A stretch of 47,145 bases of DNA from Craspedostauros australis. Lineage: Eukaryota. Position numbers and translations under genes: made by a program. Below are positions 19,056-40,092 of this stretch, one piece after another. The notes below the pieces were generated by a model. That model saw nothing but the letters and a program-made list of their open reading frames with translations. It was not told where the DNA came from and ran no database searches. Each line of letters starts with the position of its first letter. The first letter of the stretch is position 1. Location of the stretch: the NCBI GenBank assembly GCA_030167865.1, contig JALAGF010003024.1, forward strand, positions 1-47,145, given 5' to 3'.

Positions 19056-21197
19056 ATGCTGTCTCTGCGCGATGCCGTCTGCAAGATCTCGGTGAGGGGC
19101 TGCGCTCGCAATGGCGCCGTTCGGCACTTCGCGAAGGGCAACGCTGCCATCAATGGGAGAGCCTCTCTGTCGTCAATGGCATCGTCATTGTCACTGTCGT
19201 CAATGGCATCTGCATCGGCCTCTACTGGAGCCATGGCGTCGCGCGTTCTGGCGACCGCGGACAGCCCATTCCATCAGGCAAAGCGAAGCTTGTCAGGATT
19301 GCCGCATTCGGCATCTCCGTCTCCATCGCTGGCAACATCGCTAGCACCATCAGCATCGACACAATCAGCATCGACACAATCAGCATCGACACAATCATCA
19401 ACATCAGCAATAGCGGCAGCAGCAGGGTCGATAAGGACCTTGTCGACGACGACAGGCGCAGAGCCCTCGGCAGAAGAAGGCGCAAGCGAGGGGGAGGAGA
19501 TCAAGTACTCCAAGCACGAGTACCCAACGCGGAAGGAAGCGCCGATCATCTCCAGAAACACCCCCGCGCAAGCCAAGCAGACGCCCTCTGCCGCATCCCG
19601 ATCGCCCAACGATCTCAAGATCCCCAATCACGATCCCTTCGACGACGCCTGTTCGCTCACTGACGACGAGATCTCGACGGTTCTGGACCAGCAGAAACAG
19701 GAACAGGAAAGACTCACGTCCTCCATGAGCTCATTCCCCATCACCGATGCCACGCCCTCCTTCATCCCGCCCAACATCTCCTCCGACCAGCTCGAGGCAC
19801 CGAAAACGCAGATCACCGAGCTCCCCAACGGCGTCAGGGTCGTCTCGCAGGATGTCTACAGCCAGATGTGCACGGTCGGTGTCGTCGTCAATGCTGGCAG
19901 CCGCCACGAACAAATACAGGGCACCGCCCACCTCCTCGAGTCCATGGCGCTCCTCTCCACCAGGGATTACCCGGATGCCATGGAGATCCCCAAGCTCCTC
20001 CTGGATTGGGGAGCCACGCACTTTGCCAACGCCAACCGTGAGCAGACGCTCTACTGCATCGACGTCCTGCGCCCCAACGTGGAAAAGGCCATGCATCTCA
20101 TCAGCCAGGTCGTCCTGCACCCAAACCTATCCGAGGAGGAGGTCGAGCAGTGCAAGATGCTGCTGGCCTTCCAGGCGGAGCAGCCCATTCCGCAGGTGGT
20201 CCTCGGCGAGGCTGTGCATGTGGCGGCGTACGGCGCGGAGCAGCAGCTCGGACGTCGCCACTTCGCGACCCTCGACAACATTCCGAACCTTTCGGTCGAT
20301 TCCCTTCGCGACTTCTGGCGCACCAACATTCTGCAGAATCCGGAGGGCCTCGTCGTTTCGGGGGCTGGCATCGGCCACAAGCAGCTCGTGGAGATGGCAC
20401 AGCGCTACTTTGGAGACATGGAGCAGAAGTCGTCTCCCCTTGCTGTCCCATCTATATACCGCGGCGGAACGTGCACGATCGAACCCATGGAGCCGCTGCC
20501 GATGGAGGAGATGCCAGACGCTCCACCAGCCGTTCATGATGCTGCATCGGCCGACACGAAGGAAACGGACGAAAGCATCATGCCCCAGCCCGAGGATTAC
20601 TGCCACGTCACGCTGGCGTTCCCCGTCGGCGGCTGGCACTCCCAGCATGAGATGGTCACGGCCTGCGTCCTCCAAACCCTGCTCGGCGGCGGCTCGTCCT
20701 TCTCAGCTGGTGGTCCAGGCAAGGGCATGTACACGCGCATGTACCGCAACGTCCTCAACCGCTTTGGCAAGGTCGAAAGCGCCGAGGCCGTCACGTCCTT
20801 TACCGATGAGACTGGATTGATGGGCGTCTCGGGCAGCACGGCGGCGCCCGAGATGGTCCACGACCTCGTCATGATCCTCACAGAGCAACTCATCAACGTC
20901 ATCGCCAAACAAATAACCGACGAAGAGCTGCTGCGTGCCAAAAACATGCTCAAATGCAACGTCCTCAGTCAATTAGAAAGCCGCCTCGTGCTCTTTGAGG
21001 ATATTGGACGGCAGGTGTTGACGTACGACAAGCACGAGAGTGCCAAAACGACGTGCGCGCGCATTGACGCCGTCAAGGCGGAAGACATGAAGATGCTCAT
21101 CGCCAAGATGCTGCAGTCGGGACCCACCATCGCGGCGACGGGCAAGCATCTGGACAAGGTTCCCAATGATCGCGAAGTCAGCCGGTGGTTGCGATGA
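19056..21197 (+). CDS. MPPA: Mitochondrial processing peptidase alpha subunit (peptidase M16 family, non-catalytic)
   Basis: TQITELPNGVRVVS, AGSRHE, degenerate HLLES (no HxxEH), the diagnostic glycine-rich loop LLGGGSSFSAGGPGKGMYTRMY, and LESRLVLFEDIGRQVL. Arg/Ser/Ala-rich mitochondrial-type presequence. ATG at 19056; the track start at 19050 is TTG. Confidence 0.93.
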   Translation: MLSLRDAVCKISVRGCARNGAVRHFAKGNAAINGRASLSSMASSLSLSSMASASASTGAMASRVLATADSPFHQAKRSLSGLPHSASPSPSLATSLAPSASTQSASTQSASTQSSTSAIAAAAGSIRTLSTTTGAEPSAEEGASEGEEIKYSKHEYPTRKEAPIISRNTPAQAKQTPSAASRSPNDLKIPNHDPFDDACSLTDDEISTVLDQQKQEQERLTSSMSSFPITDATPSFIPPNISSDQLEAPKTQITELPNGVRVVSQDVYSQMCTVGVVVNAGSRHEQIQGTAHLLESMALLSTRDYPDAMEIPKLLLDWGATHFANANREQTLYCIDVLRPNVEKAMHLISQVVLHPNLSEEEVEQCKMLLAFQAEQPIPQVVLGEAVHVAAYGAEQQLGRRHFATLDNIPNLSVDSLRDFWRTNILQNPEGLVVSGAGIGHKQLVEMAQRYFGDMEQKSSPLAVPSIYRGGTCTIEPMEPLPMEEMPDAPPAVHDAASADTKETDESIMPQPEDYCHVTLAFPVGGWHSQHEMVTACVLQTLLGGGSSFSAGGPGKGMYTRMYRNVLNRFGKVESAEAVTSFTDETGLMGVSGSTAAPEMVHDLVMILTEQLINVIAKQITDEELLRAKNMLKCNVLSQLESRLVLFEDIGRQVLTYDKHESAKTTCARIDAVKAEDMKMLIAKMLQSGPTIAATGKHLDKVPNDREVSRWLR

Positions 21198-21689
21198 TGC
21201 AGCTGGTGTGTTGTGGCCGAATATAGCGTAATAGTATAGCATAAACGCTTGGCATGATGTAGGATACGTCGTTCCACGCCTGATAGTGCTGGACCATGCT
21301 GCATGACATGCGATGCTTCGTCAATTAGTCGACAACCATTGCCATGAATTGATCGACCGCCTGCCATGCGTTGCGGTCATCCGCTTTGTTGGGGACTTCG
21401 CTTCTTGTCATTCCAAAAGCACTCCAGAATCATTCGCGAAAACTGAGTTTGCGCGCACGGATATTTCATCCAACGCCCTTCAATCCTTCACCCGACATAC
21501 TATTCGGACATCAGGCTTCATGTTATCGTTTCGTTTCAATTTTTACTTTGGATTAGTGTTCAGATTGATATTAACTATTGCACAAAAAGGAATGGTTCGA
21601 ATGAGAATGGCCCGTTGCTGCCGTTGTCACATGCATACTGCTGCCGCTGTCACTGCTGATGTTACCGCATTTCAAATGTGGGTCCAACT

Positions 21690-23279
21690 CTAGCTTCGGC
21701 CGCCATCCAATGGGATATCCTTCATCCCATCCGCCTTTTCTGAGAACTCATCCTCGAAAGACTCATTTGTTCTCTCCTTCAATTCGTCGTCGTCATCCTC
21801 GCTGTCCATGCCATCGTCGCTGTCTTCCTCTTCACCTTCTCGGATGACGTACGTCTTTCCAAGTCGCCAGTCATGGGAAGCATCGACAGACACGTCGCAT
21901 GTATGAGCGCCGACGGTCTTGTCGCCGCTCATGGTCTTGGTGGGAGCATGCTCATCGTCCTCCTCGATCTCTCCGTTGTCGCGACGTTTGCGCAGGACGA
22001 TGATGCCGACGGCCAGCACGAGAATTCCGGCCGCTCCGGCAGCCAATCCAGCCGTGGTGGTGGTCTTGCCCGCCACTCGGCGCAGATCCGTGAGCCCGGC
22101 TCCGGGTGCCGAACGGGCCGCGTCGATGGCGGCTCCCTTGACGACGTCGGTGGTGCGGGACAGCGGGTTGGCGGCTGGCAGGGCGTTGAGACGCTTGATG
22201 TATTCGGCGAGTTTGTCACCCTCGAAGGCTTGCGTCATGATGATGTCCAGCTCGCTGATGGTGGGCAAGAAGACGGTGTTTGGAGCAAAGAGACCGAGGG
22301 TTTCGTACTCGATGGACACTGGGAAGTCTTCTCCTGGGATGGACTGCTGGCGCGCGAAGGCCGTCAAGAAGTCATCGATGTTGATCAGGGACGTTCCTAC
22401 GAAGGTCTCGAAGAAGGTCTCCTCCAAAAAGACGCGCGTGAGTTCGGTCACCTCGGCAAAATTGGAGTCCGACGGCGTTTCCTCGAGGTCGAACGCGTAG
22501 AGGAGAGAAAATACGGAAGGCGAAACTCGAAGGGAGGTTGCCGATGTCGGTGATTGCGTTGTTGGCGTTGGTGCCACTGGGGCCTTTGTTGGTGAGACGG
22601 CTGTGATTTGGGAAGATGGTATGGGGTTGGATGTTGGAAGTTGGAAGGGGCGGTTCGAAAAGTAAAGAGTGACATCGCATATTGGTGATGATGGTCGAGA
22701 AGGAGGGAGAAGAGGAAAGCGTCAGTTCAACTGCAAGCAATCTTTATCACGCTCGATCGGAGGCACAAGGCCAAATGAGAATCTGCCTCCTTCGCAGACT
22801 AGCCGATGTCGATGACGACTTGGGAGTTGCGAGTACTTACTTGGCATGTGAGTTGGGGACATCGTTGGTGTGTTGGTTGGCGCTGTGGTCATTTGAACAG
22901 CCGAATTGGCGCTCTTGGCTGACTTTGATACCGAAGGCTCCTTGGAGCTCTTGCCAGTCGCATCGCTCTTGTCGCTCTTGTCGCTCTTATCACTCTTGTC
23001 ACTCTTATCGCTCTTGGAGGTTTTCGATGGGCTCTTGGTGGACTTTGATGGGCTCTTCGTGGACTTTGATGTCCTGCTGTGCGAAGAAGTGTCAGTCGTA
23101 GATGGAGAGGTGGCTGATGTGGTTGTAGGCATTGCCATATCCTCAGAGTCCATTCGCATGATTCCGTCTTGCAGGTGCCTCTGGCCAACCTTTGCGCTTG
23201 CGCTAGTTTCACCAAAGGCCACAGTTGAAAGGCAGAGCGTTGCCGCCAGCACGAAGACTGATCGGATTGAGATTTTCAT
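21690..23279 (-). CDS. Array paralog A: RXL/KxxK-rich type I membrane protein; exons 23279-22841, 22600-21690 (~449 aa)
   Basis: Signal peptide MKISIRSVFVLAATLCLSTVAFG, RHL, KSTKSPSKSTK...KSDKSDKSDK. Phase-1 intron 22840-22601 (GTAAGT...CACAG) joins MP|TVSPTKAP in frame. Shared luminal domain, TM (AAGAAGILVLAVGIIVLRKRR), acidic tail. Confidence 0.85.
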
Positions 23280-25087
23280 CGTTGCAGTACGTCGTTTGTG
23301 TTTGTGTGATGTGCGCGATGTATCTGTGCAATGTGCCGTGCGCTACAATATAAAGTGATCGAATGCCGTTGTCCGATTGCAATGCCTATGTACGTTTCCT
23401 CGTTTATGAACGTCGGGTTGGTTGCTGTTGGTGCGTGATGGGTGGGTATGATGTCGTTGGCGTATTGGTATGCTGTGAGTTGCTGCTCGATGCTGGTGTT
23501 GTGGCGGTTTATGATCGATGAGTGACCGATTGATTTTGTGATGCTGGTGGACGTGGTGGTCGTGGTGGTAGCGGCGGAGGTGCCGACTGCGTTCGAAGTT
23601 GTGAGCGGTGATCTGCGAGCGGTGGGCCACACGCCGTGAGCTGTTTGAGTTGATGGTCTAGAAAGAGAGAGAGAGACGTTGGTGAGGGTGTCTTGTGTTC
23701 GATAAAATTGGTCTTGTTGAGGCAATTTGTGACAAGAGTGCAATCAGGTGTTGTGCGATGCGTTGGATCCCTTCTGTGTGACTTTTTGCCAATTTTGTTG
23801 CGGACACTGACATGACCATGCTCGTGTCCGTGACACTAATTTATGTGTGTCGCGTGTCGCTGGACAAAGCCAGCCAGTCACAGTCTGGTAACGGTTGGAA
23901 ACACGACTTTTGTTCACATAATTGGCCATCATCCACTTTTCGCAATCCTCTCAAAAAGACTCGACATCGATACCCTCGATTGGCACAGGCAAGAACAGGA
24001 GCCACAGCAATCACACAAGCGACAGCAACGTTGACTACTATACTAATCTCCTCTACGTATGAACAAGCGGCGGGACGCGAGGGGCACAAGCAAATGGCAA
24101 AAGAGATTCAAACGATTGACGTCGAGCTGGCTCTTTTCTACCGAGAACATAGCTGTCCCAGGCCTACGTGCCAACATCATCACCTCGAAACCCAGCGTCT
24201 CATCTCAGCACCTGGACATCAACATGAAATGCAACATCGAAGTGCAACATCGAAGGATCCATCAGGCGGAACGATCGGATGGACGAACGATGCAAGTATG
24301 AGCAGAGTCAAACATCCCATGGCCCCGGCATACCAATAGCATCAAGCTGTTCGTTTTTGTTTGTTTTTGTTTTCATTTCCTCTGTTGGAATCGATCCGAT
24401 TCCGAACGTAGATCGTACTCGTACAACTTCAGGGTGTTGAATAGGCAGTACTGGTTGCGGTTTTGCATCTTCGGCACTGTGTATGATACGATCCCGCCAT
24501 CCCATGGTGCCGCAGAGTGACAGATTTCCACCTCAATCATCCATACAAGTAGCACTCCTGCTCCTACCACACCTTCCGTACCTCCCCCATCCCATGATAT
24601 TCGCGTCGCAAGACATTGCGGGAGTATCTCGTCCTTGCGAATGGTTTCTTCGTCATTCATTGGTTGCCTGGTCATGCACACACGAATCTCAACACACCCA
24701 ATGAGAATCTGCTCTGTTGGAAATGTTCTGGCTGTCCGCGATACACGAACACGGACACGCGTACCATGCATACAGTCTGCAAAGTGATAGACGATGGCGT
24801 TGTGCATCGGAATGAAGATGATGAGGTAACATGGATTTCTACTGTGTACATTATTATGATTGTTCGAAGTATGACAGCTCCTTTCGTCCAATCGGATGAC
24901 ATGCGACCGTCCAAGGGTGTATGCTCTCCACTCTCTGTCTGTTTCATTTCATTTGGTTTCGTCTCTTTTTCAGACCGTTCCGCCGCTGGTTGCCCGCCAC
25001 ATTGCCACGTCTGAAGTTGCTTCGTTGCAAGGAGATACGAGTGAGTAAGTCATAGAATACTATTGTATTCCATTCGTAGCAGGATGA

Positions 25088-27232
25088 TTAAGCAAAGGTG
25101 CCTGTGTGGGATGGGGACGCGGAGAGTTCAGACAGGCTGATATCATCGGCTTCTGACATTTCTTCACTCAGCAGCGACTCGATCTCTGCCACCGACATAG
25201 GCCGTCTTGCTGAGGCCTCACCGTCGATGGTACCTCCTGCCGTCATGTTGGATGCTTCATTATGCACTGATCCGGCAGTGGATTCGTCGAACTCTTCCAT
25301 GAAGAACTTGTCGAACTGATGGTGCGACGTCGAGTTGTCGGAGGTCGCGCGGTTGTTGGCATCAGCTCTGGCCGCTTCTTGAAGGTAGTTGGAAACCGAT
25401 TGCGGTACGCTATCCATTGTGCGCTGCTGTGGTTCCATGTCGTGGTCTCCCTGGGCGGCCGAGTTCGTGGAGAAGACGATGGTCTCGGAATGGCTTTCGC
25501 CACCCGAGTTGGATGGCGAAGGGCTTGGTCCGAAGGAAAAGCGGGAAGCGCTATTGGTGGGTGCAACATCCTGGTTGTCACAGATCTCGTCTTCGAAGCC
25601 GTCCTCTGGGACGGTGCTGTTGTCGGCCGCGGCATTGTCCATGACAGACTCGTCTTCGTCCCACACAGGCGCAACCGACGATGAATCGAACGTGTGCGTC
25701 GCAGAGTCCAAGTCGATGTTGACCATGTCGCCGTGCTCTTCATCGCGGGCGTAGGAGGGTGAGCTGACGAAGGTGTCTCCGGTGTAGGTCTCTCCGGCGA
25801 TTGTTGCGTCGCCTGACATCGTGTTGGATTTGCCGATACCCTTTTCGAATCCCTTGCCAACGTACTCGATCTCATCGTCGCTGTTCATGCCACGTCGGTA
25901 AAGGATGACGCCGGCCGTGAGGATGATGAGCCCGCTGGCCCCTGCGATGATAGCTCCGCGTGCTGCGTGGCTGCCACGGGAGCTGTCGGAGGTGTTGGAA
26001 CGGTTCGTGGAGGATGGCGTCACGATCGCAGCGTTCGAGACAGCGGTTGTTCTACTGAATGGATTGGCTGATGGGAGGTTGGCTCCAAGGAAGGCGATGT
26101 AGTCGGCGGCACTCTGTCCCTCAAAGGCACCCTCGATGGTAGTTCCCAAAGAGTTCGAGTTGGTGAGAGCGTCGCTGGAGGACTCGGTGAAGTTCGCGGT
26201 GGAGTCGAAGATGACTGTAATACCGTTGGTGGCGCTGCTTGTGACGAAGTCGACGGTCATGGAGAGGTACGTCGCCATTGGAGTTGAATCGAATGCAGTC
26301 TCCAAGAAGTCATCCAAGAATGCCTGCGTTTGGATGGCGAGGTTGTCAAAATTATCCCGTGAAGGATCCGGCAGACCGGATGGGATACTGTAGGCAACAG
26401 CGTATCGGTCTAGGATGATGGTCTTGGCATCTTCAGGTTCCGTTGGAGCGGCGGTATCAGATCCACCACCATCGGTTGGGGCAGCAGCGGGCGAACCAGA
26501 GCCTGTGGTCGGTGCAGCCGCTGGTGAGCCTGTTGTAATCGGCGTTGGTGGGCGAGGAGCTGTTGTTGGAAGGCAGAAGGAAGGGATAAGAACATGCACG
26601 TTATGATCGAGGGTAAACGATATAGTAGAGGCATGTGGTGAGAGATGCGTTTCATGTCAGAAAATGAATGGCTTTCTCCGCCGGCAGTCTTCGGACAGTG
26701 CACTGGGTAACGTCCAGCTCAGGTATTGATGCTGATTTATTTGGCGCAAAACGAGACAGAACACAAGAGGCATGACAAGCCCGCTCAGTTCTTCTCACTT
26801 ACCGCTTGTCCTGCTTGCACTGGGCACGCCTGGGCGGGTTGGGCCGGGGGTACTGCTTGGCTGGCCTGGAGCTCTGGTCATGGTTGGCGCTGCTGTTGAT
26901 GTTGGCATGCTTCCACCCTTTGCGCTCTTGCCCGACTTTGTGGATCTGGAATCACTGCCGTCCTTGGGGGCCTTGCTGCTCTTGTCTCCGGACTTCATGT
27001 TTTTGGACGGAGACTTGGAGCTCTTCGAGCCTCCAGATCCATTTGACGACTTGGATTCCTTGCTGCTGTGCTCAGCAAAGATGGTCTGTTCGTCTTTGCT
27101 CTCACTCGATTCCAGGATGCGGCTGACGAGGTGTCCCCTGTCGTCTCCGATACTGGCGCAGCATATGCTTGGCAGCGATGCTAGAGACAGCATCGCGAAA
27201 AGCTTGACAGCGTTGATTGTGCTGATCTTCAT
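25088..27232 (-). CDS. Array paralog B: RXL/KxxK-rich type I membrane protein; exons 27232-26803, 26559-25088 (~633 aa)
   Basis: Signal peptide, RIL, KSSKSPSK/KSTKSGKSAK. Phase-1 intron 26802-26560 (GTAAGT...AACAG). Shared domain ending LPSANPFSRTTAV, TM GAIIAGASGLIILTAGVILYRR. Confidence 0.85.
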
Positions 27233-28441
27233 GATTTCGATTTCGTTGTTGGTTGGCTTGTGTGAGTGCGAATGGGAGTTTGTATGACTGTTGCTCTCGA
27301 TGTTGCTGCTGTTCTGCGTGCTTGGGCTGATGCCGTGAGGGTCGCTGAGAATGCCTTTGCTTGGTTGGATGCTTGGTTATCTGATTGCTTGCTTGCTGGG
27401 TCGACTGGTTGATCGATTGTTGTTGATGTTGGTTTTTATGCTCTGAGTTGGGGATCGGCATCCTATTGCCTCCTTGGACAGGTAGAGCAACAACCACGTC
27501 CTCCTGTCCATACACTTTCTCGTCCTCCTTTCCTCTTGCCTACTCATTCTTTTGCATCTGGACGGAGAAAGGAGTGGAAAATGTGAGCTTGGTTTTGAGC
27601 CGTTGGATCTCGTTGCGGAAATTTGCCGCCAATTTTGTTGCCCCATTGATCCGTCAACTCGTGTCACAGGAGTCACAGGCACGACACATACGATATTTTT
27701 GGTGGGCGGAGTATTCCGGGACTCGATTTCCAAGTCAACGGTGCTAATGTGTGCTTTCATGTCGTGGTTGTTGTGCTGTGAATCGTGGTTGAATGCAAGC
27801 TCGATTCGTTTGATCCCAAGTGTGATGGACATTGAGTCACATGAGTCGAATGACCGATTTGCTAGCTCTGGGAAACAAGACACCGACAACACACCACCAC
27901 ACTCGTAGAGATGGCGATTGCTTTGGCAGATTCGAACCCCTTCAAACATTGGAATGGTTGCTTCTGCAACACGGAGGCGGGAGTTAGGTATGCGACTGCT
28001 GCGTGGGCCCACTCGCTGACCGGGGTCGATGGAAACAAGGTCAGGAGAATGTACGTAGAGCAGAGTGAGTCGCACTGTTTATTGTTATTGCCATACATAT
28101 ATTAGATGTCATCCGGCTACTTTCCCGTAAGCACGCCGCGAGACCATCACGAAGCAGATTGAACATTCGCACAAAATGCTTGCTCGATTCGAAAGAGAAA
28201 ATGAAACATCTAAAGAGTACTATGGTCACAGGGAGTGTTAAAGTAGCCCAGCTGGAGTTGGCGTTGTATGAGACAATGTTTCAAGTGGCTCGTTGTCATG
28301 GTGGATCCGCGCTTGCCTTGGACGACCTCGTTGACTAGAGTACTCTATGTGAGAGCACGGATGCTTGAGCTGGCGAACGAAGCTGCTCTGGTTACGGTCG
28401 TCTGCGTCGTATTCTTGGCCACCGAGGTTGTATCATCCAGT

Positions 28442-31024
28442 TCAATCATCCAAATCAATCGATAGCATGGATTCAATCTCAGCAACGGTTCTTGGGCGCG
28501 TGGATACGGAGCTTTCCTCATCGAGAAGATCAACGCCGACGACAGAATCATCGCATGTCAGCATGGCCTCGATCTCCGCCACGGTTCTTGGCCGTGTCGA
28601 TGAGTGTGTGGACGTTGATTCCAATTGGTGCTCGTTGTTGTTGTCGTCATGAGTATCGGAGGTGCTAAGTTTCTGTTCACCGTAGTTGTTGTCGTAGTTT
28701 GTTTCATCTTCGACATCCATCGAGTCTGTGGATCCATCCAGGCAGTACGAAAGGAAGGCTTCGATGTCTTCCGATTTTTTAGACTCCAGAGATGGAATAG
28801 ACTGCGCAGCATCCGCGGATGGGGTCACATCTTTGATACTGTCGATATATGACTCCGATGTGGTTCCGTCGAATTCATCCTCGAAGTCGTCGATCATGAC
28901 AGACTGGATCTCCGAAGAAAGGCTCGCATCATCCTCGCCATGCTCGTCGTGATCTTCATCGTGGCTATCGCTGTTGTGATAGGTGTTATCGTTGTGGCCG
29001 TTTTGCATGAAGGCCTGGGCCTGACGGTCTTCAGCTTTGTCCAACGATGGAGTGAAGCCTTCTTCCATGATGGTCTCCGACATATTCTTGATCTCATGGT
29101 ACTTGTGCCCTGCGGAGAGAGCAGAGGCACCCTCCCATGTTGGAATAATAGAGCTGTCGTCGGTACCTTCGGCAATCGGATCGAGAATTTTGAGCGCCGG
29201 AGCCGAGTGGCTGGCGTCACCATCTCGATGATGCATGTTGCTGAGATACTCCAACGATGAACCACCGACGGAGCCGTTGCCATCGTATGTCTCAGCGTAC
29301 GTCTCGGCGTAGGTTTCGCCTGCGACAGTTCCATCACCTTCGAGTTTGTCCAGCTTCTTCGCGTTTGTCTCGACCTCATCCTCTTCGTCGCGGCGTCTGT
29401 AGATGACAATGCCAGCGGCCAGCAATGTGACAGCAACTGCTCCCGCAGCAATTGCACCGCCATTGCTGCCTCTGGAACGGTTGGCTGGTTTTTCTTCGGG
29501 GACCGGGGTGAGCGGGGCGGCGTCGTCCCCCAGCAAACGGATGTTGTCCACCGACTGGAAGAGGTTGCCATCAGGGAGCGAACGGAGCAGGGAGATATAT
29601 GAGATCATGTTGATGTCGCTGAAGGCCCTGGTGATCGCTTCGTTGAATTGGGCGGATGTCGTCATGACTTCCGATCCTGAGTTGACGCTCGCAGTCGGGT
29701 CATACTGGATATGGACGAGGTCATCGACCATGTTGAAGGATCCTGCCTTGTACTCTGTGACGACGTCGTCGATGATGGTCACGGGAGGTTGATGGAAGAT
29801 GTCCCCAATGAAGTCCTTCACGTACTGTGCTGTCAGCAGCGTCAACGCATCGAGCTCCTCGCGCATTGGGAGGCGTTCTCCATTGACATTGTACTCCAAC
29901 CGGAAGTCATCGACATCGACCGAAACGCTGGTTGTGCGGATCGTGTCATCTGGATCGACCGGATTGACATCTGGGACGGGCACAGGCTCTTGCGTTGGCT
30001 CGGCTGTTGGCGTCTCTGTTGTTGCGCTTCCATCAGTTTCATCTTCGTCTTCGTCGTCTGCGTCATCGTCTTCGTCGGTGCCTTGTCCTGTGGCAGTGGC
30101 TGTTTGAGAGTGATGCAACAGCAACGATGCAGTGTTTGCGGTCGGATCGCCGATAGTCGCGAAGAGAGTAGTGAGAAATCGGCTTGCATTTTATGCATCA
30201 TTTCCAAAGATCACTGCACGCTGAAACTTCAAGACGAAAGAATGATCGCAACAGCAGCAACAGCAGTATCATTCAATACGCCATGCGAAGCACCTTCCTC
30301 TAATAGTCGCTTTGCATGGCGCGACGGACGCACTGAACTTACTCGGACTGGCGGTTGGTGCCATGGTATCATCTTCTTCGCACTCATCGAGATCTTCGGC
30401 TGCCTCATGGTGGTGGGCACGGCCTTCGCCTCTGAGACGTCTTCTGGTAATACAGTCTGTGCTGTCATGGGATCCGCTATCGTCAGAATAGTGATCGCCG
30501 GAGTGACCGCTAGCATGGCTGTCCCCACTGTAGTATCCCTTTCCTTTGCCATGACTCCTGCTTCCTTTTCCGTGGCCCTTGCCATGTCCATCGCCACTGC
30601 TCACTGGCTCATGCGTGGCAGAACCACCGCCCTTACCATGCCCCTTACCGTGACCTTTTCCGAGGCCCTTTCCTTTGCCTTTGCCTTTGCCACTGCTCGC
30701 TGGTGCGCGAGATGAAGATGCACCGCTGTGGCCCTTTCCCTTACTACTCTTTCTTGTACCTTTGCCGCTGGATTTGCTGCCGTCAGCATGCGCTGCAGCG
30801 TACTCTTGCATATGCTTGTTGTGGATGCTGGAACTTGCGTCATGATACGAGACGACATTGGATGCGTGAAGTTTCGGCTCCTGTTCAAGAGATTCGAGAT
30901 CGTCCGTTGTTCGTGGACGGAGCCGCCGATCGCTGAAGGTGCGTGCATCAACGCAGTTGAAGCTGGTCGCTACGAAGAGTAGCGCTGCGAGAGCAAGTAG
31001 AACAGATCGGGAGGTTGTCATCAT
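28442..31024 (-). CDS. Array paralog C: RXL, Gly/Lys/His-rich type I membrane protein; exons 31024-30343, 30099-28442 (~779 aa)
   Basis: Signal peptide, RRL twice, GKGKGKG and GKGHGKGH repeats. Phase-1 intron 30342-30100 (GTAAGT...AACAG). Shared domain ending LPDGNLFQSV, TM GAIAAGAVAVTLLAAGIVIYRRR. Confidence 0.85.
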
Positions 31025-32092
31025 GGTGATGCGCTTGGTGTTGCTGATATGCTCGGTGTTCTTGTTGCGACTGTGTCAGCGTGGCAGTGTCCCTTTGGTG
31101 TTTGGCTCTGCGTTGTTCGTTTGAGTTTGTTGTCGCTGTGCGGATGATCGTGATTGTGATTGTGATTGCTGCTGGGTGGTAAGGATGGAGAGGACAACCA
31201 CAGCAACAACAACGCGCTGCTTGTGTCTATTCGTCGTATGGTGCAGTGGGACGCTTCTGGACGCTGCAGCGCACAAGCAGTGACTGTTCGCAAATTGTGA
31301 GAGCCAGCGGTTGGTGAACTTTTTTGGCCGGTTGCGAGCACCCTGGAGCATTTTTTGGAGGGGTTTTGTGTGTGTGGCGTGAGTTTGTGTGACACAAAAC
31401 GTTATAACACCACATAGTCAGTCATTGAGACGTTAAGATGCCCGATTTTGAAAACATCGCGGTGCGCCGTGGCGAGCCATCATGCTCTCTCGAGGTGCTC
31501 GATCCGATCACAAGCACATACAATCTGCAACCTGCACGGAGCGGAACAGCAGAGCATTCAGATCTGTCGTACACACACATCATGGAGGGATTACTATCCA
31601 TCATGACTGCTACATACTTCATCCCACCCCACCCCACCCCATCACATCCAAGTCTAGTCGAGCCCAGCCTGTTGCAAGGGCACTGTAGGCTTGTATGTTC
31701 TACATGCCAGCAGCAAGACAGATGTCCTCCAACACCACCACGAAGTACATCAACCATGGATGTAGCAGAGTGCTCGACTCCAGAGAGTGCGCAGAATAAT
31801 ACAAATTAGTATGCAGAGTGGAGCGTGCAGTAGTAGCTCTGGATAAGATAACATTCGAATTAACCGATACATACATATCAGTGTATGGTTGAGTACTCAA
31901 TTCCCTATGATTCATGTTTTGGTGGTATCTTCGCTCATGCTCGAAGTGGATCTCCATGGAGATCTCCCCTGACACTCAACTTGTTTCAAGTTTGGACCAT
32001 CACAACTTCCCCTTCCCCAGCCTGGCATAAATATGTTTCGGTAGTAGTTAACAACGAAGAGCTGGGGCGTCCCATGTTCTGTGCGCTGCTGT

Positions 32093-35000
32093 TCAGCAGT
32101 GTACCTCTGCGCCTGTGTCTTCATCCGAGAGGCCGCTGAGATCTTCATCGGAATCGAGATCCACAAGCCGCTCATCTTCTTCACGCAATTCCTTGAACGA
32201 TCGTTGGCTACTGATGTCATCGTCGCTGGTATCGTCTGAGCCATACCGGGACCTACTCATCTTCTGTGCGTCAACTGACTGGTCGCTTGTGAATGGATTG
32301 GTCGATTCATCTTTTGTTGGTGGTGGGGGGAGGTCTGAGTCCCATGATGATGAGTCTGATGGATCGTGTGCCCACATCTCAAGCGCCGCCCGGCCTTCCT
32401 CGATCTTTCCGAAGGGCATGCTTGGCAGACCGGCGCGTTTCTGTCTCGTTGTCAGAGGATTGTGCAAGGTGGAGATGTCGCAATCCTCGTCTTCGTCAAA
32501 CTGGAGGAGAGAGCCAATCGCAGTCCCATTCTTGGAGCTTGAAAAGCCGCCACCCACGGATCTGCTGTCTCCTTCGTCGTCGCCTCCGCAAGAGCCGTGG
32601 CTGGAGTTCTCGCGGGAGCTAGGTTCCTCCATGATGGGGGTGGTGAGGAGGTGCGACCGTTCTGCGCTCAGTGGAGTCTCTTCATAGTCAACGCCCACCT
32701 TCACTGAGTCATTATCCCAGTTGCGCCTGCCATGGTCCGTCGAGACGCTTTTTTCGATATCATCGTCTCCGTAGAAATCGTTTCGCAAGCCGGCTGGGGT
32801 TGCCCAACTCTTGTCCACGGATGACGCAAACGTCACCACCGTCGTCTCCCCGCTGTCATCTCTTGGTTGAGTGATCTTCCCTCTGTTCCTGCGCTTGCCG
32901 ACTGGCTTGATCAAGCTGCCATCTTCTCCGTCTTCGGCGTCATCGCTGTCCATCATCCGTCGCCGAATGATCAACCCCGCGGATGCGAGAGCGACGACGC
33001 CGGCTACTGCTCCAGCCAGCAATGTGGAGGTGTTTGATCTCGAACCGCTTTGCGACGGGCTTGATGGCAAGAAGAAGACTTCCACGACGCTGGAGAAGAT
33101 GCTCTCGGCGTTCATCGCGACGAGGAAGTCGTTGTATTCCACCAACGGATCACCCGAGAATGCTGCGCCAACAATGGCATCCAAGTCTTCTGTTTGAAAT
33201 TCACGAGTTTCTGGGGCGCGAAGCTGCGCGTGCGTTTGGAATGTCATGGAGAAGAAGCTCCCATTGATCACCCCATCGTTCACTGGGATGGTTTCGAAGC
33301 TATCGACGACAATGTCATTGTTGTCAGTGACCCAGGACACCATGAAAAGCTTCATGTACTGATTCGTGATGTCGACCAATGCTCGAATGTCATCTTCAGA
33401 AGGCACCACTGCTGCTGGGAACTGGTAGCCGATGATGAATGAAGATGAACTTGCTTTTCTCACGACCTTCTCAGGAGCTTGCGAAGGGCTCATTGTTTCA
33501 GCTTCTGCTTCTGCTTCTGCTGCAGGATTCGCGATGGGATCCATCGGTTCAATCTTTGTGGCTGTTGGAGTCGAAGTTGGCGCTGATGGTTCTCCGAGAA
33601 CGTCCGTGTTTTCGTTGAAGCCAAATGTCGGGCCGCTTGTTGGAAGTTCAGTCGGCTCCCTACCATTGCCTCCGTTGCCATTGTTTCCGCTACCTCGCGT
33701 TGGTTCCAAGGTTAACCGCAAGGTCGCCCGCGAGGTTGGCTGCAAAGTTGGCTGCAGAGTTGGCTCTTGTCCAGTACCTCCGTTCCCATTGTTCCCGCTC
33801 CCGCGTGTTGGTTGTATAGTTGGCAGCAGGGTCGGCTCAGCGGTCGGACTGACAGTTATTGGGCTCGGCGTGGCCCTGATAGTTGGGACGTGCGTTGGAA
33901 CCATTCCTTGGGATGGCTCTCCGGCGGGTGTCGGGGACATTCCAAGGACTGGGGGTAGCGAAAATGCCGGCGTGATTGTGATTACTACGCTTGGCAACGA
34001 GACTGGCATGAAGGAAGTGCTTGAGGGTGTTTCTGTTGGCGAAGTGGGTGATGTCGGATCAGTCGGTGACGTTGGTGATGTCGGGTTTGTTGGACTTGTC
34101 GGATTCGTTGGATTGGTAGGAGATGTTGGATTTGTTGGGTTCGTCGGATTGGTAGGCGACGTTGGATCCGTTGGTGAAGTGGGGTTTGTTGGATTCGTTG
34201 GATTGGTTGGGCCTGTTGGGTTGGTGGGTGAAGTTGGCGACGTCGGATCAGTGGGGTTGGTCGGAGTTGAAGGTGAAGTTGGTGATGTTGGATCCGTCGG
34301 CCCTGCTGGCGCTGTCGGATCAGCAGGAGACGTCGGAGTTGTCGGACCCCCAAGGGAGGGAGTGGGAGACGGGGTAGCGTCTGGTGCTCCCGACCCAGTT
34401 GAAGTTGATGGCGATCTTGTTGGACCTTCGCAACGAGAACAAAGCAAAAGCGAAAGAGGGAATATAACAGTAAGCAATGTGAGTTCGATGTTCCCAAAAC
34501 ACCCGCTCAACTGCATGTCAACCCAAAGATGATGCAGAAGAGAATCCTGAATCCAACTGCATTTCCGTTTTTGCACAGTTCTTCCCAATGGATCGCACTA
34601 ACCTGTTGATGTAGAGGAGTTGTCGGAAGATGAACCCTTGCCATGTCCCGCCTTTGTGAGCTTTGAGTTCCTGAAGCCCCCTTTGCCTTTGGATCGCTTC
34701 CCTGGTCCACCCGGAGCCTTCGATGATCCATCTCCCTTGCCTTTGCCCTTCCCTTTTCCAGAATCTCCTGTCCTGTCTTCTCCCTTTCCCTTGCCTTTTC
34801 CCTTGCCTTTTCCCTTGCCACCATTTGCTGATGAGCTGGGCGAGCTTTGCGATTTGGAGGACTTCATCCCCTTGCCTTTGCCTTTGCCCTTCCCGTCACC
34901 GCTGCTGCCGCCTTTGCCCAAAGAATTGTCCATGCCCACTGTACCATCGAAGAACTGTTCGAACTCTGCGATAAGGTTTTCACCCACGAACGGTTGCCCT

Positions 35001-35308
35001 ACCACGGACGCCATGCCTTTACCACCGCTGCGATCTCGGGACGACGAATCTGACTTGCTTGACTTGGAGTCCAGCTGTCGTTCTGCGTCAGACCGGAAGG
35101 TGCTATGCCGCGCACGCTCATCGAGCGCTTTGTCATCATGCGGTGCTTGAAATGTGCGATACCGTCTCGAGGGCTTGTTGTTCCCGCGGCGAGTATGTCC
35201 ATGCTGACTGTAGGCACTCGCAGCGACAGACCATCCAGCTTGCATCGCATGCAGAGCAAAGAGCACTGCGGATACCGCAAGATGACGGTGTTTGATTCTC
35301 AGCATCAT
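32093..35308 (-). CDS. Array paralog D: RXL, GK-rich type I membrane protein with a long PT(S/D/N) stalk; exons 35308-34603, 34425-32093 (~1012 aa)
   Basis: Signal peptide, RQL-DSKSSK, GKGKGKGKG runs. Phase-1 intron 34602-34426 (GTTAGT...GAAG) keeps the frame. More divergent copy of the shared domain, TM LLAGAVAGVVALASAGLIIRRR. Confidence 0.8.
34040..34345 (-). repeat. Coding tripeptide repeat PT[S/D/N/G], roughly 30 units with 9-bp periodicity, in paralog D
   Basis: PTSPTDPTSPTNPTNPT... in the translation; recurring gttgg/gtcgg on the + strand. Confidence 0.9.
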
Positions 35309-36176
35309 GGCTGCCGTCCTTCAGAAGTGATCGTTGCTTGGATCCCTCGATGGACAGGCTTGGAATTGGGTGCAAAAGTCGATAGAGCAAAGGAAATGAA
35401 TGGATGCTTGCGCGCTTCACCTGGTGGCTTTGGTACGTTGCGGCCTGTTGGTGCCGACCTTGGAAATGGCGGCCGTCGTTTGATCGTTGATGGTCGATGC
35501 TTGGTGATACAATGATGTCGTTGACGAGAGTGTCGATGAGAGCGTGTAGATGTGAATGATGAGATCGCCACCAATGCCAATGGCGTTGTTAGGTGTTGCA
35601 AAGTACTTTCTCCTTTGACTCTGTTGGGTTCGTGGATGTGACCGATGTCCGGAGCATGAAGCATGGCACGGACGTCGATTGCGCCAAGAACGAAATTGTG
35701 AGCAGAGACCGTTGGACAAAATTTTGTGATTGGATTCGTGGTCCCGCAGGACGTTATTTTACCGTTAGTAATAATTTCAACCAAGTGCGTTGTGTTTAGC
35801 ACTCGTGAACCACAGTTTCATGCGGGAGTGAGAAACTGGGGTGATTTGTGCCATGACAAGAGTACCAGCAGTCTACATCCAAGCTCCTCGTACAGAATGT
35901 GCACAACAAGCACTGCCCCACGATGGCGCTTGTGTGTTACTATATACTTGTGCGATGTGCATGCATATGTACGGGTAGTCTCATCATATGGAAAAGACGC
36001 ACTGATATCATAGTGTAATAGAATATATCAAGAGCTGTAAAATAGTTTATCTTAACGTATATTCATACTTACTATCCATACTCGTACATACTCATACACA
36101 CACACATATGACCCCGTAGTTCCAGCGCCTCGCTGGTTTTCAGCTCGTCCTGGTTTGCCCTTCTTGATCTATCTCT

Positions 36177-38576
36177 CTAGTACGATGACAGCGGCTCGAA
36201 TCGCTCGTTCCATTCCTCCGCGAAGCTCGATATCTCTTCTTCCTTGAAGATGCTCATGAGCTCGCCATCTTCGAAGTGGTATGAAGAGTCATCATCCCCC
36301 CGTTGGGATGGGGTCCGGTTATTGCCAGATCCCTGCTGCATGTCGGCCTCCTCGAAGATGACCGTGATTTCCCGATCCGCCAAGTTTTGGGGGGCGTCCT
36401 CTGGTTGGGCCGTCTTGCTGCACTGGGAGACAGAGCTTCTATCACTGTGCTGTGAGTACGACGAGTCATCCGCCACAGACCAACCGGCGGTCTGGGTCTC
36501 TGCGATGGTCTGGCCATCACCGAGCGTCTTGGAGTCACCGGAGGTCTTGATCTTGTTCTTGATGACCTTGCGCCTTCGCCTGGACAGCAGCAGGCCACCT
36601 GCAAGGATCAGGACCACACCGGCACCTGCAATGCCCCCAGCTGTGGCCGTTGCTCGTTGGGCAGAGTTTCTGGATGCTGCGGATGCGGGGTCCAGTATCG
36701 ATTCTTGCTTGGTGACCATCGTGACTGTGGAGAAGACGTTGCTTCCCGGCAGGTTCTGCAGCAGTCCGATATATCCGTTGAGAGATTGCCCCGTGAATGC
36801 AGCGGTGAGAGTGTCATCCAAGATCTGCTGGGTGGGAACGGCCATTGAGGATCCATCGAAGGTGGCAACTGCGTCATACTCGATGAGGATTGGATCGCCG
36901 AAGTCGAACGCACCGCTAGCTCGGAAGAGCGTCGAAAAGCTCAATAGCTGCGCTGCGTTGCTATCATCGAATTGATCGCTGAAGTAGTTGTCGAGGTAGG
37001 TTTGAGTCAGTTCGATGACTTCGAGGTACTCGCTGCGCAAGGGAATGCGGTCATTGGTGGGGACATACTCCAGCCCAAAAGGCGTCAAATTGACGGAGGT
37101 TGGACTCGCGGTGGGCATCGTCACTGGCATAGCGGTAGGTGCGGCAGTTGGTGCTGGGGTTTCGACGGGGATATCTGTGATGATGATATTGCATGGAGGA
37201 AGGCAGCCGCGATCCAATGTGACATGGCGTGATCGTCGGTGCAGGCACAAGTGTGAGTCAATAGTTATTTGAGATGGCAAAATCACTTTCAGTGTGGAAG
37301 TGAGGCAAATTCTTGACTGGTGTGGGGTGGAGAATTAAGCAGATGGTCCAGCATACGAGTATTTGTTGTCGTTGCATTGACTTACCCACAGGTGGCCGAG
37401 TTGATGGCACTGGAAGTCAGCGAGTTTTGTCAGGCGCGTAATTCGAACCATGCATGGTACAGCATATGGCAGAAAATGGAATAAGTTGAACAAAGAAGAA
37501 GAATTGGCAAAGTGTCAGCAGTCGAAAACATCATGGAGAACAGTACGGGTACTGCAGTTTTTCCCACGATAGTGGAATGTCATGCTCGTCTGCGTATTCG
37601 TTGGAGGGTACGAGGAGTTCAGCGTCGGGAAACACAAAGGTACTTACTGTCATTTGAGGAGTCACTGTTTGGTGTGTCTGCATGATGAGAAGAGGATGGA
37701 AAGCAGGAGAAGCAACAGGAAGAGAGAGAGAGAGAGAGGGTACCGACGAAGAGGTCAGTGGCGCAGTTTGGGCGAGCGATTGAATGGTGTTTGCGATACA
37801 AAATCACCGATTCAATTTTCTGCATCACAAGTGAGAGCAGACGTAGAATCATCTTGGGATGCCGCATGATGGTACTGCCGAGTACGTTACTTACCTGTTG
37901 GAGCAGTCTGAGCGGTTGGAGCAGAAGTGACACGGTGGGTCGGTGCGTGTGTCACATCGGCGCTTGTGGATGACTTGACTCCCTTGCCTTTGCCATTGCC
38001 TGGAGCACCCACGTCGCTGGAGGTTTTGGTGCTCTTGGGCATCTTGGAGGACTTGGTCGACTTGGTGGACTTGGATCCCTTGTCGGAGTCATATGAAGAT
38101 GATCCCTTGCCCTTGCCCTTGCCAGAGTCGTGCGAAGATGGTGACGACGATGGTGAGGCTCCCTTGCCTTTGCCCTTGCCTTCACCCTTGCCGGACGTGT
38201 CAATGTGGCGTATGCGAGGGTAGAAGTCGTCGGCGGGATCCTCGTGGGTATGACTGGCGCCTTCCACCTGAATCGACTCGACGACCTCCGTCTTGCGGAC
38301 ACCGAACGCCTTGTGCATCTGCCGTTGTTGCTGTTCATCATTGTGTTGACGATTCTGCCTCTGCTGTTGGTGGCGGTGATGATGATTCTGCAAATGGCGT
38401 GCATTGTGTCCGTGGATGAAGTTGCGTTGTTCGCGGCTGGCATGACACAGAGTCGAAGTCATGAGCAGTCCAACGCAGCTGATCACCTGGATGATCCATC
38501 TCATGTGCTTTGCAGACGCTGTCGTGGCCTTTCGCGTCGAGGGAGTATTGGCCATCGTCGTTGTTGGAATTGCCAT
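36177..38576 (-). CDS. Array paralog E: RXL, GK/KxxK-rich type I membrane protein; exons 38576 (or 38504)-37895, micro-exons 37677-37648 and 37409-37386, then 37174-36177
   Basis: Signal peptide MRWIIQVISCVGLLMTSTLCHA, RHL, GKGKGKG, KSTKSTKSSK. GTAAG donors at 37894, 37647 and 37385; all introns phase 1. Shared domain ending LPGSNVFSTV, TM GGIAGAGVVLILAGGLLLSRRRR. Start codon and micro-exons are less certain. Confidence 0.8.
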
Positions 38577-40092
38577 TGCGATTGCGTTTGAGATTGTTGT
38601 GTCGGTAGAGCTGAGCTTCGCGATAAGAAGATGTCCCGATTCGTAGATCTCTTCCGCTTCTTGTCCTTCGTCGTGCTGGATCAATGGAGTGGTAGTATGG
38701 AGAGTGCTTTGGTGGATGCTATTTCTATGTGTGTGCGATTTGAAATGAGGCTATGATGAAGGATTGGGAAAATGGAAAGTCGATGATTTGTTGCCTGTTG
38801 AGAGTCGGTCGCTTGGGTGATCCTCTGATTCTTTGGCCATTCCTCACTCAAATGCCGACTGTCCTGTTGTGGAACTATGGTGGAGTACTCGGCCAGCTTC
38901 AGTCCTTTCTGTCCTTTCCACCCTCTGCATCGCAGTTGCTGTGGATGGTGTCGACGTTGCGGTCGCGATGGAGATTGCGGCAGAATGTGACGAGTTGGGT
39001 GAGATGTGTGTCGTGAAGAGGACGCCAAAATGTGGCGTTCCGAAATTGGATCTTGGATGGCACTCGCCATTGCGACATGAAAACGACACGGGACGATGCG
39101 GACTCATTCACAATTTTGTGGAGGAGTCTTGTGACAAAGATGGAGCGGTTGATTCGTTCGACTTGAACAATGCAGCATTGGTCGACCAAGTCGAAAATGA
39201 TCCACACAGTCAAAAATGACAAATCGTCCACGAATCAAGGACGATTTGGAAGGACTGTTCTTGGAACATCATCGGATATGAACAGTGTCGGTTTCCTTAA
39301 GTATCGGCGTGTCGCAGGGGCTTTGATGACGGTTGCACATGGCACAAATGGTCATTGTGTGGTCGTGTATTGCGTGTCGTTGTCGTGGCCTCCTTGTAGA
39401 TCGCACAGACACACGAGTCGTTGTTGTTTGGCAATAGCACACGAGATGGCGCCAAGATTTCGCGCGCAAAGAAGACCACAGAGAGAGAGGGCAGAAAGCA
39501 ACAAGAAGAGTGACTGAGACAGCGAAAGCAAGCGAGGAGGACACAGACAAACAACAAACCACAAGAGCAGTGGTACGATCTCCTCGGAGATTGCCAACAA
39601 GCGCGAAAGCAAGGAGAACAGGCGAGAAGCGGCGGAAAGGACGCGCTGTCATACATTCCTTGTGCGCCCCTTGTTTCAGACGTGAGACCATCATTCCTCA
39701 AGAGTCGGTCGTACCAGAGCATCGTCGCGCCATAGAGTCGCACTAATACGACCCATTATAGTACACAAACCGACAACAAGAAGACCCTCCAACCGGCTTC
39801 AGCAGTCTGGATAGCTTCTTCGCAATCCTGGCTCGCCACCAAAAGTCTCGAACGAAGATCACCAAACGTCACATCCACATCACATCAAATCGCATTGCAT
39901 CGCATTGCATTGCATTGCATTAAACGGCATTGGGTTGGATTGACTTGGAAAGAAGCGGAGATCACATCGGCTTCAGGAGGAGCAGACCAAATCGGTGCAC
40001 AGGAGTCCAGAGTATTATATTCAAATAGGTATAATACAATATACTGCAATATACTGCAATATTCTGCAATAGATCAAAGCCGGACATAAAGA

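Follow-up and report, generated by a model that had tools for sequence, protein, structure and literature searches.

To our knowledge, silicanins and SAPs are the only proteins known to span the membrane of the compartment in which diatoms form their silica, the silica deposition vesicle (SDV). In the passages that describe them (papers are cited here and below for such passages), both Sin1 and the SAPs belong to the SDV, have type I topology and an RXL motif, and leave their luminal parts in the silica (PMC5525289, PMC5647440). Sin1 is found in SDV membranes, and it is its luminal part that is kept in the silica (PMC5525289, PMC5501833); its folded region is rich in Asn and Gln and contains 18 conserved Cys, and its tail is 20 amino acids long (PMC5525289). 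The SAPs of C. cryptica have 213–310 amino acids: they are Ser/Gly-rich, are described as having no KXXK or pentalysine motifs, and have a C-terminal region of 58–68 amino acids and a conserved segment of 23 amino acids after the transmembrane segment (TM). They are reported only from Thalassiosirales-type centrics and F. cylindrus (PMC5647440, PMC10503012). According to one proposal they connect the SDV lumen with partners in the cytosol, and the passages on them describe no folded luminal domain (PMC5647440). Soluble proteins such as silaffins and cingulins have lysine motifs which are involved in frustule targeting (PMC5501833, PMC9650480). Here we present a locus which combines features of these systems. 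We have studied a stretch of 47,145 nucleotides of the diatom Craspedostauros australis (NCBI GenBank assembly GCA_030167865.1, contig JALAGF010003024.1, positions 1 to 47,145 of the forward strand), which we will call the window. It contains a tandem array of five genes, all on the minus strand. Their sequence and structural models describe them as anciently separated paralogues within a diatom family, so far uncharacterised, of presumed type I membrane glycoproteins, and to a role of this family as a tether between membrane and wall we give a probability of about one half.

The array is built from ten open reading frames (ORFs) of the minus strand, which pair through five in-frame GT-AG introns into the co-oriented genes G1 to G5, coding for 449–1012 amino acids. 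G1 (21690..23279, 449 amino acids) has exon 1 at 22841-23279, an intron of 240 nt at 22601-22840 and exon 2, including the stop codon, at 21690-22600. G2 (25088..27232, 633 amino acids) has its exons at 26803-27232 and 25088-26559, with an intron of 243 nt at 26560-26802. The intron of G3 (28442..31024, 779 amino acids) has the same length: it lies at 30100-30342, between exons 30343-31024 and 28442-30099, and has alternative acceptors at 30087 and 30081. G4 (32093..35308, 1012 amino acids) has exons at 34603-35308 and 32093-34425 and an intron of 177 nt at 34426-34602. Finally G5 (36177..38504) has exons at 37895-38504 and 36177-37174, separated by 720 nt (37175-37894); it has 535 amino acids if it starts at ATG 38504, while an upstream in-frame ATG at 38576 was the start chosen in a first-pass annotation of the window. 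The donor is GTAAGT in four genes and GTTAGT in G4; the acceptor is CAG in the same four genes and AAG in G4. All five introns are in phase 1 and are located within the Pro/Thr stalk of the protein. In G1 and G4 the two exons are in the same frame, parted by one stop within the proposed intron. The pairing had been proposed in the first-pass annotation: the ORFs are found where it placed them and the phase-1 joins are in frame. The array as an observation is thus confirmed; the gene models, the common architecture and the single family are supported.

The lengths of the introns (240, 243, 243, 177 and 720 nt) are all multiples of three; for five introns this would be expected by chance about once in 243 cases. 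Each of them, if retained, brings an in-frame stop within 1–39 codons. To judge from the sequence, a retained intron would yield a secreted protein with signal peptide, RXL site and Lys block, which would lack the end of the stalk, the conserved domain and the anchor. Since every intron combines such a length with an early in-frame stop, regulated retention could toggle between an anchored and a soluble silaffin-like form. The long intron of G5 also contains two possible in-frame micro-exons, at 37648-37677 (30 nt) and 37386-37409 (24 nt), with AG and GTAAGT at their borders; the stalk could gain Pro/Ser/Thr-rich residues from one of them or from the two together.

Transcript evidence comes from X1, the sole expression run used, whose kind (RNA) was guessed (share 0.10). 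Its contigs are identical to 21525-21957 at the 3' end of G1, to 28218-28870 and 28923-29079 at the 3' end of G3, and to 31962-32244 at the 3' end of G4. A loose run of T before 28218 in one contig corresponds to the poly(A) of a minus-strand RNA: the G3 transcript ends near 28218, about 224 nt past the stop codon. In this run we have found no read or contig which spans an intron of G1–G5 (0 of 5 covered), so that the exon joins rest on splice consensus, frame and homologues. Both halves of the protein are found in one unbroken frame in the MMETSP transcript P0159 (marked complete, 423 amino acids), in P0032 (883 amino acids) and in P0011 from Nitzschia sp. Nitz4; unbroken ORFs of 455 and 379 amino acids with the full architecture are also present on metagenome contigs of 1.4–1.9 kb. 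Matches of 33 nt between X1 and the repeats of the Lys blocks (22965-22997 and 38160-38192) are low-complexity partial matches, which we have discarded as evidence.

The five proteins have a common order of parts: signal peptide, RXL site, Lys-rich block, Pro/Thr stalk, a conserved domain of about 130 amino acids, a Gly/Ala-rich TM and an acidic, disordered cytoplasmic tail. The conserved domain is what defines them as a family. With its linker and TM it is found at 21978..22535 in G1, 25883..26425 in G2, 29384..29926 in G3, 32948..33460 in G4 and 36567..37100 in G5, always on the minus strand (alignment A2), and a six-frame scan of the window gives exactly these five copies. By BLASTP the domains of G1 and G5 match with E 6e-19 and 34% identity. 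G4 is the most divergent copy: it matches G3 with E 5e-4, and its pairwise comparison with G2 is not significant (E 1.1). A hidden Markov model (HMM) prepared from 185 foreign sequences only recovers all five copies in full length, with E values from 7e-37 to 5e-15 (Z=1e6); they are 5e-31 for G1, 2e-19 for G2, 1e-26 for G3 and 5e-15 for G4. The conserved globular domain which the first-pass annotation had claimed is therefore real by both BLASTP and the foreign-only HMM, and its fold can be described as a SEA-like module adjoining the membrane.

This description is based on an AlphaFold2 model of the G5 copy, obtained with an alignment of 53 sequences. Its pLDDT is about 98 over residues 1-130 and the order of elements is beta-alpha-beta-beta-alpha(alpha)-beta. 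We compared the model with 48,161 representative chains using VIA-align, for which a Z under 8 may reflect a common arrangement. The top rows are mostly membrane-adjacent modules of single-pass surface proteins: SorCS2 (Z 8.2), the GPR126 extracellular region (7.8), protocadherin-15 MAD12 entries (7.2, 7.0, 7.0, 6.8 and 6.4), TMPRSS6 (6.7), the dystrophin-glycoprotein complex (6.7), MUC16 SEA (6.5, 6.5 and 6.3), a transmembrane-protease SEA (6.2), CELSR1 (5.8) and cadherin-23 MAD28 (5.4). Among the 50 rows listed, 10 are SEA, MAD or protocadherin-15 by title, with Z 5.4–7.2; the stretches matched in GPR126, TMPRSS6 and dystroglycan, whose titles do not mention it, we take to be SEA-type as well. 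We call the domain SEA-like because SEA and MAD entries concentrate among the structural matches and because its position before the TM is identical. The model does have the beta-alpha-beta-beta-alpha-beta fold directly before a type I TM, with Z values that are middling and a ferredoxin-like fold that is common.

Other searches with the domain were negative. A Pfam search of the ten ORFs gave no family, and the five C-terminal ORFs had no match even at E<=1; in 25 relatives, 24 have no Pfam family at E<=0.001 and one has FG-GAP. A search of PDB sequences with the domain gives TM-like matches only (E>=0.21). In the ESM Atlas the SEA clusters score 0.77–0.78, under the level which the tool considers more than a lead. 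Some SEA domains carry a G-S(V/I)VV autoproteolysis site in the turn between beta2 and beta3. The corresponding motif G[STC][VIL][VIL] is absent at this turn from all 190 sequences examined (0/190): their consensus is G-E/Q-P-V. The domain has a mean of 0.13 Cys per copy in the same 190 sequences, and a homodimer prediction for domain plus TM gave no verdict (score 0.00).

In order to define the extent of the family we searched a profile of the five domain and TM segments against 1.84 billion cluster representatives (clusters at 50% identity). It matches 712 of them at E<=1e-3, 394 at E<=1e-10 and 35 at E<=1e-30. The domain thus defines a large family which has no Pfam entry, and every named member is a diatom. 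Thirty clusters were looked up: the names found are Nitzschia sp. Nitz4, Nitzschia inconspicua (two proteins in one cluster) and Cylindrotheca fusiformis, besides two from MMETSP transcriptomes; another protein of N. inconspicua was found in addition to these. Bacillariophyta is also the commonest phylum in the nearest ESM Atlas cluster. A word-indexed search with alignment A2 for longer relatives found none, which is weak evidence according to the tool.

The domain is present in 241 of 255 fetched proteins: 219 have it once, 11 twice, 9 three times and 2 four times. When at least 60 amino acids follow the last copy, a TM-like segment is practically always found within 110 amino acids of it (223 of 225 relatives). 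The rest of the architecture is more variable. Among 76 N-complete relatives, a window with 20% Lys or more is found in 61 and one with 60% Pro/Thr/Ser (PTS) or more in 47. For the RXL site we used 41 N-complete, non-identical proteins with a signal peptide, and shuffled each ectodomain 500 times: the motif appears at residues 19-60 in 22 of them, compared with a mean of 2.6 and a maximum of 8 in the shuffled sequences, and either RXL or a multibasic site appears in 32 (4.5 when shuffled). Some relatives (P0001, P0004, P0005 and P0061) have 2–4 tandem SEA-like domains before the TM, and P0061 also has FG-GAP repeats; the module therefore serves in larger ectodomains of adhesion-like type as well.

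A tree of 190 domains places each of the five genes nearer to foreign sequences (0.8–3.3) than to its nearest paralogue in the window (2.6–3.6). The array is therefore old and does not come from a recent burst. Elsewhere, the N. inconspicua proteins P0047 and P0222 have locus tags IV203_015152 and IV203_015155 on one contig of 3.9 Mb. P0003 and P0006, which have the long and the short type of tail described below, have a common longest contig of 11,623 bp. This suggests that tandem clustering of long- and short-tail members is conserved in two other organisms. A look for related loci gave nothing for P0006, and for P0165 three short contigs with no flanking DNA. Eight 7-mers recur upstream of at least four of the five genes, compared with 0.6 when single nucleotides are shuffled. 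These words are rich in CA and keep no constant position, there is no shared 8-mer, and we base no claim on them.

Going now to the N-terminal part of the proteins, a hydrophobic segment (Kyte-Doolittle mean over 19 amino acids above 1.6, the heuristic on which we base the signal peptide) is present in G1, G2, G3 and G5, whereas that of G4 is too weak to reach the threshold. The RXL sites are RHL34 in G1, RIL38 in G2, RRL33 in G3, RHL8 and RQL77 in G4 and RHL36 in G5. They are followed by the Lys-rich blocks, which are disordered and of silaffin/cingulin type. In G1 (22968..23066, residues 72-104) the block consists of KSTK/KSPSK/KSDK repeats, with a pentalysine cluster and a lysine-enriched region. 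In G2 it is found at 26918..27025 (residues 70-105). The blocks of G3 (30539..30775, residues 84-162) and G4 (34637..34915, residues 132-224) are Lys/Gly-rich, the former with GKGKGKGKG and GHGKG repeats and the latter with three GKGKGK runs. In G5 (37974..38192, residues 105-177) we find GKGKGKG twice together with KGSKSTKSTKSSKMPKSTK. All these blocks are on the minus strand, as are the genes. The 40-residue windows of the stalk peak at 42–68% Pro+Thr in all five genes. In G1, G2, G3 and G5 the stalk has 30–70 amino acids and spans the intron; in G4 it is much longer (33461..34425, minus strand) and reaches 68% Pro+Thr in about 120 amino acids. A Pro/Thr/Ser-rich stalk before the membrane-proximal domain, as in transmembrane mucins, is thus present by composition in the five genes. 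After the signal peptide the ectodomains have 0–2 Cys per protein, and their low-complexity part differs strongly among paralogues.

In the literature a pentalysine cluster is defined as five non-consecutive Lys in 12–14 amino acids, while K(X)2K motifs that lie in a cluster make a lysine-enriched region (PMC5501833, PMC9650480). A screen for silaffin-like proteins (SFLPs) has used a signal peptide plus repeated KXXK (X = S/G) spaced by 1–6 residues, and PT repeats accompany many of the proteins found (PMC5501833). In our genes we have counted 10, 7, 2, 5 and 8 KxxK for G1 to G5, with just 1–3 per gene of the strict form K[SG][SG]K. Pentalysine-type regions are present in all five (at least one in each) and lysine-enriched regions in G1, G2, G4 and G5, not in G3. 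The name silaffin-like, given to the array in the first-pass annotation, is therefore justified as a matter of composition under these published operational definitions. The individual motifs it had listed (RXL, Lys blocks with KSTK, KSDK, KSSK and GKGKGKG, Pro/Thr stalk, TM followed by Arg or Lys, acidic tail) can all be located in the translated genes.

The Gly/Ala-rich TM is followed by Arg/Lys and by a tail of 97–317 amino acids with 20–35% Asp+Glu. In 172 non-identical relatives a motif T[VIL]AG[ED]T is found after the TM in 95 cases, and two types of tail can be distinguished. The long type has the motif [DE]I[DE][SA][LM]L, usually as RPRTVAEIESLL: it is present in 27 relatives, with a median tail of 285 amino acids, and in G2 and G3 of the window. 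The short type has a DEPLD end or HWR; it is found in 45 relatives with a median of 89 amino acids, and G1 resembles it. The motifs of the two types are mutually exclusive: none of the 172 has both. In the tail of G3 the sequence RPRTVAEIE[A/S]ML is repeated twice (28463..28594; copies at 28559-28594 and 28463-28498, minus strand). It is of acidic-dileucine type. In an AlphaFold2 model of this tail, apart from the TM helix, only the repeats are ordered, with two short helices (pLDDT 76–84). A motif search gives one RRPMSVAEIESLL motif in the tail of G2 (25169..25207, minus strand). The acidic-dileucine sorting pattern is [DE]XXXL[LI]; E-I-E-S-L-L matches it and may be used as a sorting signal in diatoms. 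We have found no recognised myosin- or actin-binding motif in the tail, which is blank in Pfam and modelled as disordered.

We can now compare these proteins with the systems mentioned at the beginning. As in silicanin-1 (Sin1/SiMat7) and SiMat7-like proteins, they are of type I, with signal peptide, RXL propeptide and a C-terminal TM, and both groups appear to be restricted to diatoms. However the window proteins have 0–2 Cys in the ectodomain, a Lys block, a PT stalk, a SEA-like domain and long tails. They have the topology and the RXL site of a silicanin without its Asn/Gln-rich domain with 18 Cys, and we have rejected this identity. With SAP1-3 they have in common the signal peptide and RXL, a luminal region of low complexity and, immediately after the single TM, a conserved segment. 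They are set apart from SAPs, as far as the description of the latter goes, by their length (449–1012 amino acids), the presence of KXXK and pentalysine motifs and the tails of 97–317 amino acids. The first-pass annotation could not relate the array to a characterised family, and this still holds: Pfam gives no match, the identity with silicanins has been rejected, and the description of SAPs does not fit (SAPs, as well as the SSP protein mentioned below, were compared by description). Silaffins, cingulins and SFLPs likewise have a signal peptide and RXL; their KXXK motifs are clustered with Ser/Gly, they contain pentalysine or lysine-enriched regions and in many cases PT repeats, but they are soluble, wholly disordered proteins with neither anchor nor folded domain. 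Furthermore, in G3 and G4 most Lys are found as GKGKGK and not as the KXXK of silaffins and cingulins.

A different resemblance is found with animal surface proteins. MUC1, MUC16, protocadherin-15 MAD12 and the GPR126 SEA region have a Pro/Thr/Ser stalk, a beta-alpha-beta-beta-alpha-beta module, a single TM and a tail, with Z 6.2–7.8 for the module. Here the Pfam and PDB searches give no sequence similarity, there is no G-S self-cleavage motif, and the polycationic block has no counterpart in the animal proteins. The likeness of the SEA-like domain to SEA and MAD, as judged from the model, is one of structure; common descent may or may not lie behind it. In C. australis itself the mucin-like frustule coat protein CaFAP1 has been described: PTS-rich regions alternate with Cys-rich domains, and no TM is described in the passages cited (PMC11420354, 10.1101/2023.03.06.531300). 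The array proteins resemble it in being diatom proteins, associated with the cell surface and rich in PTS, but CaFAP1 has the layout of a gel-forming mucin while the family of the window is poor in Cys and membrane-anchored.

Three individual proteins were also considered. Tp5357, a protein with a lysine-enriched region found at the fultoportulae, was rejected as a relative: it had been selected for having no TM (PMC9650480). A study of the soluble silicome lists 18 proteins with a single TM, one of which, TpSSP20, combines KxxK with SMSM motifs (10.1101/2021.09.18.460806). Relatives such as P0011 and P0159 also contain SMSM-like stretches, and TpSSP20 may be related to the family, as far as its description allows the comparison. 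MRP1 of P. multistriata has been described as SEA-like (10.64898/2026.03.25.714164), but the order of helices and strands given there is different; it was rejected on this description. Our search of the literature on SEA domains in diatoms, on mucin-like transmembrane diatom proteins and on silicalemma or RXL domains, which covered the main texts of openly accessible papers, found no description of the family.

The presence of a Lys-rich segment, a mucin-like stalk and a SEA-like domain beside the membrane in one protein suggests that it may tie the cell wall to the interior. The protein would enter the secretory path and lose its propeptide at the RXL site, or at a multibasic site in some relatives. 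It would be sorted by motifs of the tail, the juxtamembrane GDxT(V/I)AGET together with either the C-terminal E-I-E-S-L-L helices or the DEPLD acidic end, to a wall-forming compartment or to the plasma membrane facing the wall. There the polycationic block would bind silica or a polyanionic wall matrix, much as silaffins and cingulins are directed to the frustule by their lysine clusters. A stalk which would be glycosylated, together with a rigid, non-cleaving SEA-like module, would space this block from the bilayer, the tail would recruit cytosolic partners and the ectodomain may end in the frustule, as for Sin1 and SAP3. The association with silica is suggested by composition, and the modelled fold would point at least as much to the logic of transmembrane mucins as to a role in silica.

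Several observations weigh against this tether. Neither Pfam nor the PDB sequence search ties the conserved domain to SEA, and it falls outside the Pfam family of that name (PF01390). Foldseek gives no match in the PDB at E<=0.001: the best one (E 3e-3) is generic ferredoxin-like, and the VIA-align values (Z 6–8) are in the range which that tool calls middling. The combination of SEA, stalk and TM is the layout of a surface mucin, and we know of no silica protein which has it. The putative tether stands on sequence and models. The Lys-rich, RXL and PT features are compositional and are also found in wall proteins which are not embedded in silica; frustulins, for instance, are listed among RXL proteins (PMC5647440). 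The counts of the RXL census are not independent, because the sequences are related. The named relatives are few and are all raphid pennates of Bacillariaceae type (Nitzschia, Cylindrotheca), although such a raphid-only range may merely reflect which records carry names.

This last point is also relevant for the main alternative, which we consider less likely than the tether but a real possibility: the proteins might be surface mucins of the plasma membrane unrelated to silica, part of a glycocalyx which holds, lubricates or adheres to extracellular polymers, and in raphid species some of them could couple adhesive strands to actomyosin. The stalk, SEA-like domain, TM and tail do come in the order known from transmembrane mucins of animals, and the modules nearest in structure are those which lie next to the membrane in adhesion proteins. 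Motifs of acidic-dileucine type fit endocytic recycling from the surface. As for gliding, all named relatives are raphid pennates, and the gliding model requires a transmembrane protein which "has yet to be identified" (PMC10547550); a hypothetical complex has been drawn (10.1101/2025.03.18.643962). However the tail has no recognised motif for binding myosin or actin, the restriction to raphids is perhaps an artefact of naming, and the pentalysine and lysine-enriched motifs together with RXL are hallmarks used to find frustule proteins (PMC5501833, PMC9650480). A receptor or mechanosensor is doubtful. Its SEA-like module would be force-sensitive or shed and its tail would signal, as in the modules of dystroglycan, Notch and adhesion GPCRs (G protein-coupled receptors). 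GPR126, protocadherin-15 MAD12, CELSR1 and the dystrophin-glycoprotein complex are indeed structural neighbours, the conserved juxtamembrane and C-terminal motifs of the tail imply cytosolic partners, and there are relatives with 2–4 tandem domains, one of them with FG-GAP repeats. Yet the G-S autoproteolysis motif is absent (0/190), Pfam detects no kinase nor any other signalling or ligand-binding domain in the ten ORFs of the array and the 25 relatives, and the low-complexity ectodomain varies strongly among paralogues, as would not be expected in a specific receptor.

It is very improbable that the gene models are wrong or the genes dead, the ORF pairs being separate genes or pseudogene debris. 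In favour of such a possibility, RNA covers no joint, and the exon pairs of G1 and G4 are in one frame with a single stop between them. But five consensus donors and acceptors, all in phase 1, fall at the same position of the protein and leave open frames of 449–1012 amino acids; unbroken homologues have both halves, three 3' ends match exactly in X1, a run which shows a poly(A) end, and paralogues nearer to foreign sequences than to their neighbours must have been retained for a long time.

The surroundings of the array are those of a eukaryotic genome, with GTAAGT...CAG introns and a GC content of 0.52–0.59. Its neighbours are a CXXC/PHD protein, a GTP cyclohydrolase II/DHBP synthase, a leucine-rich repeat protein and an M16 processing-peptidase-like gene (19050-21197). 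The matches to GTP cyclohydrolase II and DHBP synthase are divided over two adjacent ORFs of the plus strand (6570-8466), which are probably one gene of the riboflavin pathway with an intron. Also on the plus strand, at 40090-45591, there is a frame of 1833 amino acids with Roc and COR-A (a ROCO-type GTPase) and a C-terminal trypsin-like peptidase, an unusual pairing.

Returning to the putative tether, a single polypeptide unites lysine clusters of the type which targets proteins to the frustule, a mucin stalk, a SEA-like module and a tail with motifs. The family thus gives a concrete candidate, which can be tagged, for the link at the SDV membrane or for the one required in gliding. It is a long shot, but it could even be the missing class of transmembrane couplers of diatoms: the ectodomain would grip silica, wall matrix or adhesive strands, the tail would engage adaptors, actomyosin or microtubules, and different paralogues would pass cytoskeletal patterning to the SDV or drive raphid gliding. 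The family would also bring a photosynthetic stramenopile into the range of the SEA/MAD-like fold, discussed so far mainly for animal surface proteins. If the proteins turn out to be ordinary surface glycoproteins, they would still provide a useful new domain family for the annotation of diatom genomes.

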